Source of the DNA: a candidate division WOR-3 bacterium
GTDB lineage: Bacteria; Hydrothermota; Hydrothermia; LBFQ01; DSFT01
Direction: 5' to 3'
Length of the DNA: 50,938 bases
Assembly (NCBI GenBank): GCA_965649115.1
Contig: CBFGJN010000005.1
Coordinates: 1 to 50,938, forward strand
Positions within the stretch are counted from its first letter, which is position 1. Each line of letters begins with the position of its first letter. A model generated the notes under the pieces. It worked only from the letters and a program-made list of their open reading frames with translations. It did not search any database and had not been told where the DNA came from. Position numbers and translations under genes: made by a program. Shown in pieces: positions 23,160 through 50,513 of the stretch.

Positions 23160-23645
23160 TTTGTTAAGTCTTTATGACTAAAAATGGTTTTAATGGGGAG
23201 CTCTGCTCCCCCAAAGCAAAAGAGAGGGTTTTTTAAAGCCGAAGGCTTGTATTTAGGGTGGGTGGGAAAATATAATAAAATAAGGACTTTCAGAATTCCT
23301 AGACAAAATAGGACATAAATGCTTTGTCCAGTAAATAATGTTAAGTAAAAAGCCCCCCGAAGCCGAAATATGGGTATTTTTAAGCCGAAGGCTTAATATC
23401 AGGGCGAGTGGGAAAAATATAGAAATAATTATATTTTTAGAATTACTAGACAAACCAAAAATAAATTGCTTTGTCCAGTAAATAATGTTAAGTGCTTGAT
23501 AGTCAATAACTTATTAAAAATTCATTAAAATTCTTGAAATAATGGGGGGAATTTAAGGGGGGCGGAGTTAAAGCCGAAGGCTTATATTCAGGGTGGGTGG
23601 GAGAAGTATAGAAATAATTATATTTTCAGAATTACTAGACAAAAC
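23160..23645. mobile_element. Tandem cluster of three MITE-like copies (decayed copy, 23321-23456, 23468-23645)
   Basis: 11-nt junctions AGGACATAAAT (23310-23320), AAAAATAAATT (23457-23467) and AGGACATAAAA (23646-23656). Confidence 0.82.
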
Positions 23646-23682
23646 AGGACATAAAAAACATTATGCTTTAAAATTTCAAAAT

Positions 23683-25544: not shown

Positions 25545-26095
25545 AAACCTTTTTTTGGAATTTTTGGACACAGCATCAATATGGGCATTTTAAAGACGCA
25601 GCCTTTATTTTAGAGTGGGCGGGCAAAATATAGTAAAATAAATAATTTCAGAATTTTTAGACACAGCAAATTTAATCTGCTTTGTCCAGTAAATAATGTT
25701 AAGTGCTTGATAGTCAATAACTTATTAAAAATTCATTAAAATTCTTGAAATAATGGGGGGAATTTAAGGGGGGCGAAGCCCCCCAAAGCATAAGAATGGG
25801 CATTTTAAAGCCGAAGGCTTATATTCAGGGTGGGTGGGCAAAATAAGAAATAATCTATATTTCCGAATTACTAGACAAAACATCAGAATTTTGCTTTGTC
25901 CAATAAATAATGTTAAGTGATTGATAGTCAATAACTTATAAAATTTTTAAAGAAATTATTGATTTTATGGGGGATTATAGGGGGGGCTTTGCCCCCCATA
26001 ACCGAAAAATGGGTATTTTTAAGCCGAAGGCTTAATATCAGGGTGGGTGGGAAAAATATAGAAAAATAAATAATTTCAGAATTATTAGACACAGC
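25545..26095. mobile_element. Tandem MITE-like cluster: decayed copy plus two 203-bp copies (25679-25881, 25893-26095)
   Basis: Junction AAATTTAATCT (25668-25678); ATCAGAATTTT on both sides of the last copy (25882-25892, 26096-26106). Confidence 0.88.
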
Positions 26096-26130
26096 ATCAG
26101 AATTTTTACTTTATGCTTTAAACTTTCCTT

Positions 26131-27375: not shown

Positions 27376-27892
27376 GTTTAAATTCCACGTTGTTTAAATT
27401 CCACTATGTTCAGATGAAACAAAGAAGTTCTTACAATAGAAATGAATATCATCAATATGTTTAAATTCCACTATGTTCAGATAAAACTCGCAAATCACGG
27501 AACCAAAAGGGTCAACATAGAAATCAAAATCTGTTTAAATTCCACTATGTTCAGATAAAACACATAGTGGAATGAGAATAAAAAGGGGGTGGAAAATAGT
27601 TTAAATTCCACTATGTTCAGATAAAACCAAAGAAGAAAAAAGCTCAGATATAAGCACTGAAATAATGTTTAAATTCCACTATGTTCAGATAAAACTCATC
27701 ACGAACGGATTAACCCCCGGTATGTTTATACCGTTTAAATTCCACTATGTTCAGATAAAACGCTTTATTATTTGTCACGAGTTAGCACACTATTACCGTT
27801 TAAATTCCACTATGTTCAGATAAAACGTGGTAAAAATTCTCCTCGATACAATTGATGACACAAGTTTAAATTCCACTATGTTCAGATAAAAC
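27376..27892 (-). CRISPR. CRISPR array: 8 repeats of 29 bp and 7 spacers (36-45 nt)
   Basis: Plus-strand repeat GTTTAAATTCCACTATGTTCAGATAAAAC at 27392, 27459, 27533, 27599, 27667, 27733, 27798 and 27864; variant repeat and partial copy at the left (trailer) end; minus-strand repeat ends in ATTTAAAC, a typical 8-nt handle. Confidence 0.97.
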
Positions 27893-34769: not shown

Positions 34770-34807
34770 AGTTTTAAAATTTTAAAGTTGAGTGTTCAAA
34801 TTGGTCT

Positions 34808-35010
34808 GTTTTGTCTAGTAATTCTGGAACTATTTATTTTATTATATTTCTCCCACCCACCCTATAATTAAGCCTTCGGCTTATAAATGCCCATTTTTAG
34901 GCTTTGGGGGGCAAAGCCCCCCATTAGACCCCCCATTAAATCTATAACTTCTTTAAAATTTTTATAAACTATTGATAATCAAGGACTTATCATTATTTAT
35001 TGGACAAAGC
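34808..35010. mobile_element. Full-length 203-bp MITE-like element with target duplication
   Basis: Flanked by (C)AAATTGGTCT (34797-34807) and (A)AAATTGGTCT (35011-35021). Confidence 0.88.
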
Positions 35011-35038
35011 AAAATTGGTCTGTTATAAAATTTACATT

Positions 35039-35479
35039 ATGCTTAAAATTCCCGAACATGGATATTGCTTTGTATGTGGAAATTCAAGCAAAAGAGGGCT
35101 AAATGCAACATTGTTTTTAATGGATGATAAAAGTGTTTGTTGTGAGTATGAATTTGATATAAACTTTCAAGGACCTCCTGGTTTTGTTCATGGGGCAGCA
35201 AGTTTTAGTTTGCTTGATGAGGTTATGGGAATATGTGCGTGGGCAAATGGTTATAATGTTTTGTTAAGACATATGGATATTGAGTATTTTAAAATGGTTC
35301 CTTTATATAAAAGAATTAAAGCAGTTGGTAGAATTGAAAAAGTTGAAGAAAACAAAAAAATTTTTGTAATAGGTGAAATAATTTATGAGAATGAAGTTTA
35401 TATTAGAGCAAGGGGACTTTATATTTTAGTTGAAAACGAACTACTTGGGAATGTTAAAAAGGTTTTCATAGATACGTAA
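35039..35479 (+). CDS. PaaI-family hotdog thioesterase
   Basis: CFVCG, FQGPPGFVHG..LLDEVMG; start moved to the ATG after TAAAAT. Confidence 0.88.
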   Translation: MLKIPEHGYCFVCGNSSKRGLNATLFLMDDKSVCCEYEFDINFQGPPGFVHGAASFSLLDEVMGICAWANGYNVLLRHMDIEYFKMVPLYKRIKAVGRIEKVEENKKIFVIGEIIYENEVYIRARGLYILVENELLGNVKKVFIDT

Positions 35480-39488: not shown

Positions 39489-39534
39489 TTGCTTGAAATA
39501 GTGGGAAGATTAGCTTCCAATAGCAAAAGATAAG

Positions 39535-40087
39535 GAATTTTAAAGGCGAAGCCTTAAATATGGGTTGGGTGGGCAAAATATAGAAAAATATATATTTTCA
39601 GAATTATTTAGACACAGCAAAGCAAAGTTGCTTTGTCCAATAAATAATGATAAGTTATTGATAATCAAGCTTTGCTCCCCATAGCCGAAAAAAGGGTATT
39701 TAAAAGCAATAATTGAATGCTTTGTCTAATAAATAGTGCTAAGTGATTGACTATCAATGACTTATAAAGGTTCATTAAAATTATTGATTTATCGGGGGTT
39801 TTAAGGGGGGCAAAGCCCCCCGAAGCCGAAATATGGGTATTTTAAAGCCAAAGGCTTAAATTTAGGGTGGGTGGGGAAAATATAGAAAAATAAATAATTT
39901 TAGAATTTTTAGACACAGCAAATTTAATCTGCTTTGTCCAGTAAATAATGTTAAGTGTTTGATAGTCAATAACTTATGAAAAATTCATTAAAATTCTTGA
40001 AATAATGGGGGGAATTTAAGGGGGGCGAAGCCCCCCAAAGCATAAGAATGGGTATTTTAAAGCCGAAGGCTTATTATCAAATACAGC
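39535..40087. mobile_element. Tandem MITE-like cluster (includes 39719-39919 and 39931-40087)
   Basis: 11-nt junctions; AAATTTAATCT at 39920-39930 and 40088-40098. Confidence 0.85.
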
Positions 40088-40122
40088 AAATTTAATCTGA
40101 ACTTTACTTTAAAATTTTCAAT

Positions 40123-46178: not shown

Positions 46179-47674
46179 TTTATAATTTCCTCCTCTTTGT
46201 AAGCTGTAATAACTTTTCTTGAAATTTCAGATAAAACCTCTTTATTTAATTTTTCAATAATTTCCTTTGCTCTATTTAAGTATGAAATAGGAATTGAAAA
46301 AATTCTTATACCAAATGAAATTAGTGCAATTAAACCAATGTCATTACTTGCCATATCTCCACAAACACTAAAAGGCTTTGGTTTTGACTTTGAAAACGAA
46401 TAATAAATTAATCTAAATATGCTTGGATGAAATTGTTGAAAACTAATATCATTCCTATTTATAGCAAGTGTATATTGAGTTAAATCATTTGTTCCAAGAC
46501 TAAAGAAATTGACTAATTTTTTAAATCTATCAGTAATTAATGCTGATGAAGGAGTTTCAATCATTATACCAACTTCAATATCTTCTAAAAGTTTTTTTAT
46601 TTCCATAACTTCCTCAACTGATGAAACCATAGGTATTAAAACTTTTATATTTTTTAATTTATTTGCTAATTTTATTGCACTAATTTGTTTGTTTAAAAGT
46701 TCTCTATTGTAATAAAGTAAATATCTTATACCTCTTATATTCGGATTTTCTGCTGAAATTGGAACCTTATCACCTCCCAAATCAAATAATCTAATTGTTA
46801 AAACTTTTGGATAAACTTTATAACTCATTTCTTCATAAATATCTTTCTGTTCATTTTTGCTTATTATACCATTTAAATAAAGATACTCCGTTCTAAATAA
46901 TCCAATATCAAAATTTTTAATTTTTTCAACTTCTTCAGGGAAATCTATATTAATTTGAATTTTTATTGGAATTCCATCTTTTGTTTTAAAGTAATCACTT
47001 TCAAATAAAATATATGTTGGTTTTTCAAAAATCTCAATTTTCTCATTTGTAAATTCAACTTCATCATTATTAATGATAGCATATTTATAATTTTTTGCTA
47101 TATTAACAACATTTTCAATACCAATAATTGTTGGAATGCCTTTATCTTTTAAAATAAGAATAGGATGAGAAGTTAGGGCATTCGTTTCAAGAACAACGCC
47201 CTTTATATTGCTCTTAATTGCTTTCAAACTTTGTCTAATTGTCAAATTTTTTGCAACTAATATCGTCCCTTCTTTAAAGTCTTCTTTATCTAACTTTCCT
47301 GCTATGAAATCCAAAAGTTCATTTTTAAAAAATTTTAGTTCTGTTGAAATATGTTTATAATGTTCATCTTCTAAATTGAATTTATTTGAGATTTCATCAA
47401 TTGCCAAGCCAATTGATTTTAATAAATTTTCATTTTTATTTTTTACCATTTGAAGAAAACTTTTACTTCTTAATATACTTACATAAAAATTGACATACTC
47501 CTTATATCTTTCATCCATACCATTAATTTCTTCAAGCAAATAATTTATATAACTTTCAAAAAGATTCTCAATATCTTTAATTTCAAAATCATTTGTGAAA
47601 TCTTCTGCTTTATCTAATATGAAAATCTCTCCAAAAACCCTTGAACTTACAACAACAATTCCTTTAAGTTTCAT
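46148..47674 (-). CDS. ptsI: PEP-protein phosphotransferase (PTS enzyme I)-like
   Basis: TSH phospho-His, IGLFRTEYL, RGIR, GIMIETPS, SLGTNDLTQY, VCGD; start moved to ATG 47674. Confidence 0.88.
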   Translation of the reverse strand: MKLKGIVVVSSRVFGEIFILDKAEDFTNDFEIKDIENLFESYINYLLEEINGMDERYKEYVNFYVSILRSKSFLQMVKNKNENLLKSIGLAIDEISNKFNLEDEHYKHISTELKFFKNELLDFIAGKLDKEDFKEGTILVAKNLTIRQSLKAIKSNIKGVVLETNALTSHPILILKDKGIPTIIGIENVVNIAKNYKYAIINNDEVEFTNEKIEIFEKPTYILFESDYFKTKDGIPIKIQINIDFPEEVEKIKNFDIGLFRTEYLYLNGIISKNEQKDIYEEMSYKVYPKVLTIRLFDLGGDKVPISAENPNIRGIRYLLYYNRELLNKQISAIKLANKLKNIKVLIPMVSSVEEVMEIKKLLEDIEVGIMIETPSSALITDRFKKLVNFFSLGTNDLTQYTLAINRNDISFQQFHPSIFRLIYYSFSKSKPKPFSVCGDMASNDIGLIALISFGIRIFSIPISYLNRAKEIIEKLNKEVLSEISRKVITAYKEEEIIKCLKFYLDSL

Positions 47675-47713
47675 ATAAAATAAAATTTTAAAGGATATAA
47701 AAGAAATTTTTGT

Positions 47714-48334
47714 GCCTTGTCTAGTAATTCTGAAAATATGATTATTTCTTATTTTTCCCACCCACCCAAAAATAAGCCTTCGGCTTTAAATACCCATATT
47801 TCGGCATTGGGGGGCTATGCCCCCCTTAAAAACCCCCATTAAATCAATAGTTTCAGAGAATTTTTGATAAGTTATTGATAATCAATTATTTAACATTATT
47901 TACTGGACAAAGCAAAATTTTTGTGCTGTGTCTAAAAATTCTGGAATTATTTATTTTTCAAAAGCCTTCGGCTTATAAATACCCATTTTTAGGCTTTGGG
48001 GGGCTTTGCCCCCCATTAAATCTTTATAAACTATTGATAATCAAGGACTTATCATTATTTATTGGACAAAGCAAAATTTTTGTGTTTTGTCTAGTAATTC
48101 TAAAAATATAATTATTTCTATATTTTTCCCACCCGCCCTATAATTGAGCTTTCGGCTCTACTTACCCATATAAATGATTTTCTTAAAATTTCATAAGTTA
48201 TTGATTATCAATTATTTAACACCATTTACTAGACAAAGCAAAATTTTTGTGCATATTGTGCCTTTTTTTGCCTTGGGAACTTTGCCCCCTTTAAATCAAT
48301 AAATTTATTAAAAAATTATTTTATTGGACAAAGC
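47714..48334. mobile_element. Stack of four MITE-like copies separated by the same 11-mer
   Basis: GAAATTTTTGT (47703-47713); AAAATTTTTGT at 47914-47924, 48073-48083 and 48240-48250. Confidence 0.9.
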
Positions 48335-48356
48335 ATAAAAAAATTGATTCATCATT

Positions 48357-50513
48357 CTAAAATACAACTTTTTGTAAAATTTCCTCTCTTTCTGTTTTTA
48401 TGCTAATTATAAACAAGCCTCTTTTTAGTTTTATCTTAATTTCTTTTTGATAATTAAAGGTTTTATTCAAAATTAAACTACCATTTATTGAATATACTTT
48501 AACTTGAATATCGGACTTATATGGAATACTTAAAATTACAAAATTATCCTTATAGCTAATTTTTATTTTGGAAAAATCAGCTTTTAAAGGTTCGTCAGAT
48601 TTTGTTATATTACAAGCATTAGCTGATAAAATTTCAATCTTGTCAATTACCCATCCACTATCTCTTGCAGAAGCATCAGAATAGAATTTAAGTCTTAAAT
48701 AAACATTATTATCCTTAAATCTTGTAATATCAAAGGTATCACTTCTGAAATTGTTATTTATACCCCAAAACCTTCTAATAGGAATGAAAAGTTTGTTATC
48801 ATTTGAGAAATCCAAACTTGCAAAATCATATACATTATCCAAAGTATTATAATCACCTTCTATTCTCCATTTATGAGTTATAATAGCTTCAACATAATCA
48901 TAAGAACTTAAATTTAAAGGAGTTAATAATCTAACATCTGTGTTTAGATTATTGTTATATAGAGTTCCATTCGGATTAGTTCTTAAATATCCATTTGAAA
49001 AAACCCAAGTTCCACCGTTTACTTGCCAATTGGAATTGTTATTAAAATCATCTACAAAAACCTGATTTCTCTGTCCAGCTATAAATTTTTCAACAACTTG
49101 ATTGAATCCCAAGTTATTATAAAAAACAATATGAACCTTATAATTTTTACAATTATTTAATGAAAGAAATTTGAATTGGATATTGAAAAATCCATAACCA
49201 AGAGAATTTAAATTCCCAATATAAACGATAGTATCAATAGGAATTGCATTAACATTATCTAAAATTTTTAATTTAGCGTATAAATTATTTATTGGACTAT
49301 TGAATCCCAGGTTCATCCCACTTATTGAAATTGTTATCGTATCACCATTAAAATTGTATGAAAAATTATTTAGTTCAATAAAAGGACCAGCGGACTTAAC
49401 AAGGTATAAAAAGGGAAATATATTTTCCCCTACTTGTTCAAGAATTATATTCGTATCTGGTTGATAAAAATTCTCACCTATTTCAAATGTCCAACCAAGA
49501 GCTTTGTTATGTTCATTTGTAGCACCATATATCCAGTCATCAGTTGTTCCATCTGTCACATATAAAAAATAAGCTTGAAAGGACCTATAAGCATTATGCC
49601 TAAACATTTTCCAAGCAAGTGTCCTATAAGCGCTATCATCAGATGTGGGAGTTGAAGTATAACCCCATGGCCACAAGTTCAAGTTTGAATATGTATGAAT
49701 ATCAACACCTATGGTTGGCTTTATTTGATTAAAGAAATTTCTATATGCTTGACTTTCAGGTTCAGAAAATGGAGAAGGACCTCTATATGTTTCATCAGAT
49801 GGATTTGGACTAGAACCATTACAGCAACCCCACATATAACCAAAATTCCTATTTAAATCAACACCATCATAAGTTGTTTCAAATGTCCCATTATTATTAT
49901 TGTCTCTCTTATTCTTCCTCCACATACCACTTGAATAAGTTTCATTAAAAACATAACCATCAGGATTTGTTACAGGGATTATATAAATATCTCTATTGTC
50001 AAGAAGGTACTTAATTTCTAAGTTTTTATTATAATTTTTTAGTAAATAGTTAGCAAATCCCAAAAGAGCTGAAACACCACCTGGTTCTCTTGCATGAATA
50101 GCACTATTAAACCAAACAACAGGTTTTTGATTATTATTTGAAGATATCTTAATACCTTTTATTTGTCTATTTTCCCAGGTTAAACTCACTATAAATGGTT
50201 GTGAAACCAAGCTTGGATAATTATTATAAAAATTCTGTATTTCATTCATAGCTTCATTATAAGTATAATATGGACCAAAGTTTATAAGTGTTTTGATATC
50301 TGAACTTCTTAATCTAATTTCACTTGGATATAGATTTTTAATTTTATTATATTCAATTTCATTTACAACAACATCAATGAACTTTTTTCTTAGATCAATA
50401 GCAGAAATATCATTTATACCAAGGGAGATGATTTTATCTATATCCGTTCTATCATTTATATATAGCCTGACAAGAAGTTTTTCTTCAAAAAGGGAAATTA
50501 AAAGGATAATCAT
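48357..50513 (-). CDS. M14 zinc carboxypeptidase (carboxypeptidase T-like) with C-terminal sorting domain
   Basis: IHAREP, NPDGY, WRKN, GVDLNRNF, DIHTYS, TFEIG. Confidence 0.93.
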   Translation of the reverse strand: MIILLISLFEEKLLVRLYINDRTDIDKIISLGINDISAIDLRKKFIDVVVNEIEYNKIKNLYPSEIRLRSSDIKTLINFGPYYTYNEAMNEIQNFYNNYPSLVSQPFIVSLTWENRQIKGIKISSNNNQKPVVWFNSAIHAREPGGVSALLGFANYLLKNYNKNLEIKYLLDNRDIYIIPVTNPDGYVFNETYSSGMWRKNKRDNNNNGTFETTYDGVDLNRNFGYMWGCCNGSSPNPSDETYRGPSPFSEPESQAYRNFFNQIKPTIGVDIHTYSNLNLWPWGYTSTPTSDDSAYRTLAWKMFRHNAYRSFQAYFLYVTDGTTDDWIYGATNEHNKALGWTFEIGENFYQPDTNIILEQVGENIFPFLYLVKSAGPFIELNNFSYNFNGDTITISISGMNLGFNSPINNLYAKLKILDNVNAIPIDTIVYIGNLNSLGYGFFNIQFKFLSLNNCKNYKVHIVFYNNLGFNQVVEKFIAGQRNQVFVDDFNNNSNWQVNGGTWVFSNGYLRTNPNGTLYNNNLNTDVRLLTPLNLSSYDYVEAIITHKWRIEGDYNTLDNVYDFASLDFSNDNKLFIPIRRFWGINNNFRSDTFDITRFKDNNVYLRLKFYSDASARDSGWVIDKIEILSANACNITKSDEPLKADFSKIKISYKDNFVILSIPYKSDIQVKVYSINGSLILNKTFNYQKEIKIKLKRGLFIISIKTEREEILQKVVF

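Follow-up and report, generated by a model that had tools for sequence, protein, structure and literature searches.

CRISPR arrays grow from one end: Cas1-Cas2 acts at the leader end, where staggered cuts lead to the duplication of a short repeat, and units acquired earlier are displaced. Integrons also take up new cassettes at a fixed point, attI, near the Pc promoter, and older cassettes are pushed distally; the reaction is carried out by a tyrosine recombinase on attC and attI sites and produces no target duplication. IS903 makes 9-bp target duplications, has only a loose target preference and is not known to show promoter homing. To our knowledge, promoter homing in bacteria is known for a single transposase superfamily, the Mutator-like transposases of TnGBS and ISLre2. 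[quoted passage not shown] Double insertion at one site has been described in Drosophila for the P element, R1 and hobo. That account reports, for the P element, R1 and others, head-to-tail copies that keep the target duplication in the junction, R1 arrays split by identical duplications, and P-element dimers at preferred promoter-near sites, and it mentions bacterial transposon dimers (PMC5932611). Here we describe a bacterial locus that appears to combine the two known behaviors, promoter homing by a transposon and multiple insertion at the same site.

The locus lies in a stretch of 50,938 nucleotides (the window) from a candidate division WOR-3 bacterium, whose genome, G000, is a 1.85-Mb metagenome-assembled genome from a hot spring, with 27.6% GC and 99 contigs. 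In this window, the intergenic space between a PtsI-like gene and an M14 peptidase gene consists entirely of four head-to-tail copies of a MITE (47713–48335), referred to as E1 to E4 from the PtsI-like gene outward. The features of the locus are as follows.

46148/46151–47674, minus strand: PtsI-like (PEP-utilising) gene, PF02896 and PF00391, with its ATG at 47672–47674
47683–47693, minus strand: promoter-like motif, CTTTAAAATTT on the gene strand and AAATTTTAAAG on the plus strand, 8 nt before the ATG
47704–47712: 9-bp target-site duplication AAATTTTTG, copy 1, promoter-proximal and presumably the one that is re-used
47713–47914, plus strand: E1, 202 bp, a complete MITE
47915–47923: 9-bp duplication AAATTTTTG, copy 2
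47924–48073, plus strand: E2, 150 bp, with two internal deletions; same subfamily as the copy at 34809
48074–48082: 9-bp duplication AAATTTTTG, copy 3
48083–48240, plus strand: E3, 158 bp, with a central deletion
48241–48249: 9-bp duplication AAATTTTTG, copy 4
48250–48335, plus strand: E4, 86 bp, heavily decayed; by eye, the right end is recognisable, as is some of the middle, TGC being all that is left of the left end
48357–48359, minus strand: stop codon of the M14 carboxypeptidase gene (PF00246)

Ten nucleotides separate the motif, which ends at 47693, from the first 9-mer, which begins at 47704. The original prediction held that four element variants are separated by one and the same 11-mer. 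The repeated word is real and is present four times, but its true unit is 9 bp, and the 11-mer is an A, the 9-mer and a T. Exact matches to the 11-mer, AAAATTTTTGT, lie at 47914, 48073 and 48240, with an unrelated one at 35357; the word that precedes E1 is GAAATTTTTGT, and the inner nine bases are identical at all four sites. Since 1.49 matches are expected by chance and at least four were found in 3 of 100 shuffles, the four matches to the 11-mer are by themselves a weak argument. On the distal side of E4, the flank TAAAAAAAT (48336–48344) does not match the 9-mer AAATTTTTG. The description of the proximal copy as complete and of the distal ones as more decayed was accurate: E1 occupies all 203 model columns, E2 and E3 have internal deletions, and E4 is a wreck that falls under the nhmmer threshold.

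The extent of the family was determined with nhmmer and a profile of 203 positions, built from 122 full copies. The 730 hits merged into 712 MITE copies, which cover 95,887 bp or 5.2% of the assembly. The ends of the element are inverted (TGCYKTGTCYAGTAATTC... and ...TTAYTRGACAAAGCA), and in the 122 full copies the left end TGCYKTGTCYAG aligns with the reverse complement of the right end, TGCTTTGTCCAR. The interior holds a CCCACCCACCC tract, two GC-rich hairpins and a TTGATAATCAA palindrome. In the whole window, the Rfam models matched CRISPR repeats only, so that the MITE corresponds to no Rfam family; an archaeal SSU model run on the genome detected no rRNA in the assembly. With its inverted ends, target duplication of fixed length, small size, lack of coding sequence and many copies, the element is a MITE.

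Solitary complete copies show what a single insertion does to its target. Their 9-bp flanks are identical in 47 of 109 cases and differ by at most one mismatch in 57 of 109, compared with 0.6 for shuffled partners. Thus, each insertion duplicates its target, as had been proposed, and the duplication is 9 bp long rather than the product of an 11-nt stagger. The two additional bases of the 11-mer belong to the inverted repeats, as their terminal bases: in 95% of 355 proximal ends the base before the left end is a T, and junction spacers have A as their first base in 111 of 114 cases and T as their last in 112 of 114. Complete termini that face each other within 100 nt form 122 junctions, of which 120 are head-to-tail; among these 120, the spacing is exactly 11 (A, 9-mer, T) in 98 and 10 in 8.

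Strict chaining of copies yielded 93 arrays (79 doublets, 13 triplets and one quadruplet), and looser clusters, defined by the same orientation and a gap of at most 60, numbered 117, 35, 5, 2 and 1 with two to six copies, respectively. The 9-mer upstream of the array equals the first junction, allowing one mismatch, in 36 of 63 arrays; at the other side, the distal flank repeats the last junction in 12 of 30. The clean layout of the array at 47713–48335 is therefore the commonest case and not a rule. Complete left termini outnumber complete right termini genome-wide (470 vs 335), and the right end is missing in 53 of the 89 distal-most array members when contig edges are excluded. Solitary copies with only a left end are more frequent than those with only a right end (147 vs 71). 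Some shortened copies are directly followed by a 20-nt left-end stub, as at 25550–25574 of the window. The window contains the following further copies.

25550–26106, minus strand: second array, two complete copies, a truncated copy and a left-end stub; 9-mers AAATTCTGA twice, then GATTAAATT
23186–23656, minus strand: third array, in which a dimer flanked by TTTATGTCC sits on an older truncated copy (T-E-S-E-T-E, where E is an element, T the outer 9-mer and S a differing inner one)
39502–40098, minus strand: fourth array, at least four copies or fragments; 9-mer GATTAAATT, which is also present inside the array at 25.6 kb
34797–35021, plus strand: solitary complete copy with the 9-bp duplication AAATTGGTC; E2 subfamily

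The claim that other loci have 11-mers of their own was borne out, in that all six words named for them fall on element boundaries within the window. A CRISPR array is also present in the window at 27459–27892, with seven repeats (Rfam CRISPR-DR43) and spacers of 37–45 nt; it lies 1.4 kb from a MITE stack.

A head-to-tail array with identical spacers could also be formed by tandem duplication or unequal crossing-over of one element together with its 9-bp flank, the copies diverging later. The same T-E-T-E-T layout would be expected from that process, and TRF does call the 23-kb and 25-kb arrays tandem repeats, with 79–80% matches. If arrays arose in this manner, then neighbors are expected to be close relatives. 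In none of 37 scorable pairs was the neighbor the nearest relative, its median rank being 108 of 257, and the median p-distance between neighbors (0.229) did not differ from that of all pairs (0.224; p=0.72). A FastTree phylogeny of 393 copies likewise placed adjacent copies as sisters in 0 of 63 pairs. The outcome named beforehand as refuting, that copies within a cluster are each other's closest relatives, was thus not observed. In the array beside the PtsI-like gene, the nearest relatives of E1 (p=0.010, contig C24), E2 (p=0.028) and E3 (p=0.045, contig C7) all lie elsewhere, and the mutual distances of the three copies are 0.18–0.30. The second copy had been said to resemble the 34808 element more than its neighbors, and this was confirmed: E2 is at a p-distance of 0.102 from the copy at 34809 (rank 9 of 297; E1 and E3 have ranks 132 and 282), compared with 0.204 from E1 and 0.284 from E3. 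Two alignments disagree for single pairs, the second giving 0.298 and 0.186 for these last two distances. Because neighbors are never closest relatives, tandem duplication is rejected as the main process, and we regard it as extremely improbable. The arrays are built from independent insertions.

Next, we compared the ages of neighboring copies, using as a proxy the distance of each copy to its nearest relative elsewhere in the genome; by this proxy, a copy with recent daughters also appears young. Of 88 strictly chained arrays, 68 had the younger copy on the promoter side and 20 the older (p=1.4e-9). To avoid ascertainment via intact ends, the pairs were also scored on the same alignment columns with the ends ignored, and here the promoter-side copy was younger in 146 of 188 pairs, with 41 reversed and one tie (p=5e-15). 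The gradient is found at every depth: proximal copies were younger in 107 pairs against 35 for position 1 vs 2, in 32 against 3 for position 2 vs 3, and in 5 against 1 for position 3 vs 4. A tree of all copies set against array position had been suggested as a check, and in the tree of 393 copies, besides the absence of sister pairs, the promoter-side copy had the shorter terminal branch in 48 cases vs 15 in reverse. The result was weaker when only pairs with both ends present were used (22 vs 11, p=0.053), and the distance to the consensus did not differ (20 vs 13, p=0.21). Distances are 0.208 among proximal copies and 0.253 among distal ones; since proximal copies are still 0.208 apart, sequence constraint is not the explanation of the age gradient. 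The displacement of older copies away from the promoter is thus supported as a strong tendency, statistical and not strict, with 41 of 188 pairs in the reverse order.

The array beside the PtsI-like gene follows this tendency, with nearest-relative distances of 0.010, 0.028 and 0.045 from the promoter outward, followed by the wreck E4. E1, which has a terminal branch of 0.0, is by its sequence the youngest copy of this array. The terminal branch of E2 (0.053) is longer than that of E3 (0.026), the reverse of the order given by their nearest-relative distances. Truncation is a poor clock: the nearest relative of E3 is just as short as E3 itself, and its deletion is therefore older than its insertion. 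Distal decay can also stem in part from selection that shields the promoter side, which fits the excess of left-end-only fragments among solitary copies.

Independent insertion could still deliver arrays ready-made, if adjacent copies moved as a composite via their outer ends and no site was used serially. A few arrays have the structure that such moves would leave, T-E-S-E-T, with matching outer 9-mers around a different inner one: three two-copy arrays and the array at 23.2–23.6 kb. In addition, the junction word AAATTTAATCT is found at both 25668–25678 and 39920–39930, and the promoter-side copies at these two places are only p=0.034 apart. It seems that an element was copied along with its flank from one of the two loci, at 25.6 kb and 39.9 kb, to the other, and some multi-copy units seem to move together occasionally. 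As the general origin of the arrays, composite movement is nevertheless highly unlikely. All four 9-mers are alike in the array beside the PtsI-like gene, which a composite is not expected to produce; the copies around most recurring junction words are unrelated (p 0.15–0.33); and copies that moved together are equally old at their new site, and would dilute an age gradient but cannot create it. Recurring junction 9-mers were also considered as evidence of composites in their own right and were rejected, the copies that flank them being mostly unrelated.

The orientation of the arrays is tied to a short motif. Upstream of 355 proximal left ends, the motif AAATTTTAAAG (CTTTAAAATTT on the other strand) stands at positions -31 to -21, and with at most two mismatches it is present there in 199 of 356 proximal ends. 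When a single mismatch is allowed, sequence outside MITEs contains 1638 occurrences, and 609 of these have an open frame of at least 100 codons within 45 nt. The start codon follows 4–8 nt after the motif at 415 of the 609 gene-associated sites, a distance that suggests leaderless or near-leaderless mRNAs for most genes of this organism. By its position, the motif would be a promoter element of the -10 type, belonging to genes with little or no leader. Examples within the window are found at 47683–47693, 26108–26118 and 23669–23679. A MITE left end is present at 191 of the 609 sites with motif and gene. Among 228 motif-associated ends the offset is 19–20 in 166, which places the 9-bp target about where a -35 element would be. 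A minor class of 51 ends lies about 8 nt closer, 11–14 nt from the motif (e.g., in contigs C24, C10 and C16), and could represent a second allowed register.

If no anchor acts at promoters, and the transposase merely prefers a local 9-mer or the end of an element already present, being free to use any copy of the 9-mer, then the distance to the motif and the age order would have to follow from selection, in which insertions persist only where promoter and genes are spared, and from faster decay on the distal side. The compactness of this genome is in keeping with such a reading, since most insertions away from promoters would strike genes, and so is the excess of left over right ends, both overall and among solitary copies, which fits protection of the promoter side; moreover, some AT-rich 9-mers recur at unrelated loci. 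Selection, however, gives a minimum distance and not a sharp peak such as 166 of 228 ends at 19–20, and it leaves the single orientation at 120 of 122 junctions unexplained. The age gradient was measured from substitutions on identical columns and not from truncation. It also persists between positions 2 and 3 (32:3), a result not expected if insertions were merely drawn to the end of an element. We therefore consider an origin without a promoter anchor unlikely.

In our favored explanation, which we consider likely, a MITE of about 203 bp inserted several times independently, and the resulting stack is anchored to the promoter, with the newest copy proximal. An IS5-family transposase whose element has the same terminal sequence would move the MITE in trans, making 9-nt staggered cuts that leave a 9-bp duplication around each insertion. 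The target would be chosen by the motif CTTTAAAATTT, 4–8 nt before start codons, and not by the 9-mer, with the anchor read either via bound RNA polymerase or from the DNA itself. Insertion would occur in one orientation, usually with the left end 19 nt from the motif and hence over the -35 position. As the 9-mer is duplicated, the promoter retains its own copy, and the same site is offered again at the same distance. With an intact 9-mer restored and no sign of target immunity, the next insertion would take place at the same spot and push the earlier copy away, and the outcome would be a head-to-tail array whose newest copy is proximal to the promoter. Only the promoter-side 9-mer lies at the required distance, so this single insertion rule predicts the polarity that was measured.

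An integrase making 11-nt cuts had been proposed as the enzyme; an IS5-family DDE transposase is the most likely candidate instead, given the 9-bp duplications and an N-terminal gene stub beside sequence of the MITE right end. A complete transposase gene is absent from the assembly: six-frame searches with PF01609, PF13737, PF13359, PF13586, PF05598, NF033580 and NF033581 gave no match. Pairs of left and right MITE ends 0.5–2.5 kb apart in this genome enclose only ordinary genes, the long repeats of the genome are paralogous genes and include no autonomous IS, its short contigs carry no transposase, and no recurrent non-MITE segment adjoins solo ends. PF01609 loci in 64 genomes of the class had no MITE-like ends. 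Contigs under ~2.8 kb are absent from the assembly, and a collapsed IS contig would thus be lost.

The NCBIfam model IS5_2 (NF033579) gave two weak matches at contig ends, covering model positions 2–43 and 2–51 with E values of 1e-5 to 3e-5, far below the cut-off. These contig ends start with TGCTTTGTCCAATAAATAATGT, which is the right end of the MITE, and about 70 nt later an ORF begins with MGKINWQKYNKELVRRGEIW..., of which only the 49–56 N-terminal amino acids are present. The same stub is found with 95–100% identity at ten contig ends (C50, C93, C88, C29, C28, C6, C1, C38, C20 and C83). All ten contigs stop 122–236 nt inside the IS, and its other end is not in the assembled sequence; the genome thus has some ten copies of the IS at the least, with the body of the element unassembled. 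In C1, C28 and C93 the stub lies 9 nt from a MITE left end, the MITE in C93 being decayed. In C6, at about 49940–49990, the IS end is joined directly to the left end of a MITE, without the 9-bp spacer (...GACAAAGC|TGCTTTGTCC...), a junction that looks like a circle or tandem-dimer intermediate and not like a same-site insertion.

Metagenome relatives with 37–45% identity over the stub are full-length proteins of 301 and 331 aa, which pass NF033579, PF01609 and PF13737; one relative has inverted ends of ~16 bp about 1.1 kb apart. Among plasmids, the matches to L047, the 301-aa relative, bear the names ISAba13 and ISPna5, in records that are mostly from Klebsiella. From these sequences, the probable driver is an IS5-family, IS903-like DDE transposase that acts in trans on the MITE. 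The likeness to the IS903 group consists of the 9-bp duplications, which IS903 also makes, and of the distant full-length relatives, which carry DDE_Tnp_1 and DDE_Tnp_1_5; the end sequence shared by the MITE and the IS may also resemble the IS903 terminal repeats. Assignment to this group is tentative, drawn from general features of the group and from relatives and not from the gene of G000 itself.

Among 31 related genomes, the MITE family has many copies in G000 and G002 and two matches in G003, and none was found in the others searched. G002 is the closest relative (89% amino acid identity in PtsI) and also has MITE stacks. Its copy of the same promoter bears a single complete MITE, which lies 18 nt from the motif and is flanked by another duplication, ACTTTTTTW. 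In three species of the genus (G001, G003 and G004), ptsI directly follows ptsH (HPr-like) in an operon-like arrangement with no MITE. The ptsI gene of G000 and G002 is a single gene that has a motif and MITE copies of its own in front of it and is located downstream of a gene for a secreted peptidase. The best match of MITE copies between G000 and G002 is 87%, compared with 99% within G000, and the two genomes are therefore too diverged (89% in PtsI, 87% in the MITE) for copy-by-copy orthology. Since the three intact copies are younger than the species split, comparison of G000 with G002 cannot show the order of gain. It was also considered whether E4 has its ortholog in what lies upstream of the lone G002 copy, and the idea was dropped, as the alignment was unconvincing. 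Reads and contigs of four hot-spring runs were also mapped on 47200–48800, and no strain polymorphism was apparent in this mapping; the contigs are interrupted within the repeats, and sequence of copies from elsewhere in the genome also aligns there. A single X7 contig, whose gene is 6% diverged, stops 21 nt inside the left end that follows 47704, and copy number is not readable from it.

How do these arrays compare with the systems described before? [quoted passage not shown] The present family differs from them in that no Mutator-like signature was found, the stub matching the IS5-family model only; in the placement of its 9-bp target over the -35 position, with 10 nt between it and the -10-like motif that follows; and in consisting mostly of a 200-bp MITE. 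The Drosophila cases are eukaryotic and mostly dimers, which later grew through unequal exchange (PMC5932611). Here, in contrast, a bacterial MITE and IS form up to four to six unrelated copies per site, in 93 strictly chained arrays within 1.85 Mb and with a measured age gradient. The original prediction had likened the arrays to CRISPR leader-end integration. The likeness holds for the logic only, namely entry at the promoter end, duplication of a short repeat and a chronological array. It does not extend to the components: there is no Cas1-Cas2, the units are transposon copies of 86–202 bp with inverted repeats, the 9-bp word is specific to each locus, arrays are many, nothing hints at an immune function, and the only Rfam CRISPR repeats in the window are those at 27459–27892. 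With integrons the likeness is promoter-proximal entry; a tyrosine recombinase, attC and attI were not seen here. A search of literature outside subscription journals and supplements found no account of promoter-anchored MITE stacks, of promoter homing in the IS5 family or of the repeats of this lineage.

A broader reading can be offered tentatively, as one that we consider possible but would not favor as it stands: an IS5-family transposase may have evolved promoter homing independently, probably through recognition of RNA polymerase or of DNA shape at promoters of the leaderless type, and in the absence of target immunity this could have led to time-ordered stacks at about a hundred promoters. 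If true, this would be a second, unrelated homing family, and the strategy would be one that evolves repeatedly.

The stacks are a rare bacterial case in which the order of insertion can be read from position. They may be of use for the relative dating of transposition bursts, for tests of target immunity and for asking how promoters cope with as much as 600 bp of foreign DNA inserted at the -35 position, and such an array could serve as a simple molecular recorder. The combination of an anchored entry point, a duplicated repeat and displacement parallels CRISPR adaptation and could inform the origin of arrays. In the genome itself, the MITE family fragments the assembly into 99 contigs and occupies much of the non-coding DNA of the lineage. 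If the homing reading is true, the family would stand beside CRISPR and integron arrays as their natural counterpart among DDE transposons, and would be a living model for the founding of a polar array when a target duplication beside a leader is used again and again.
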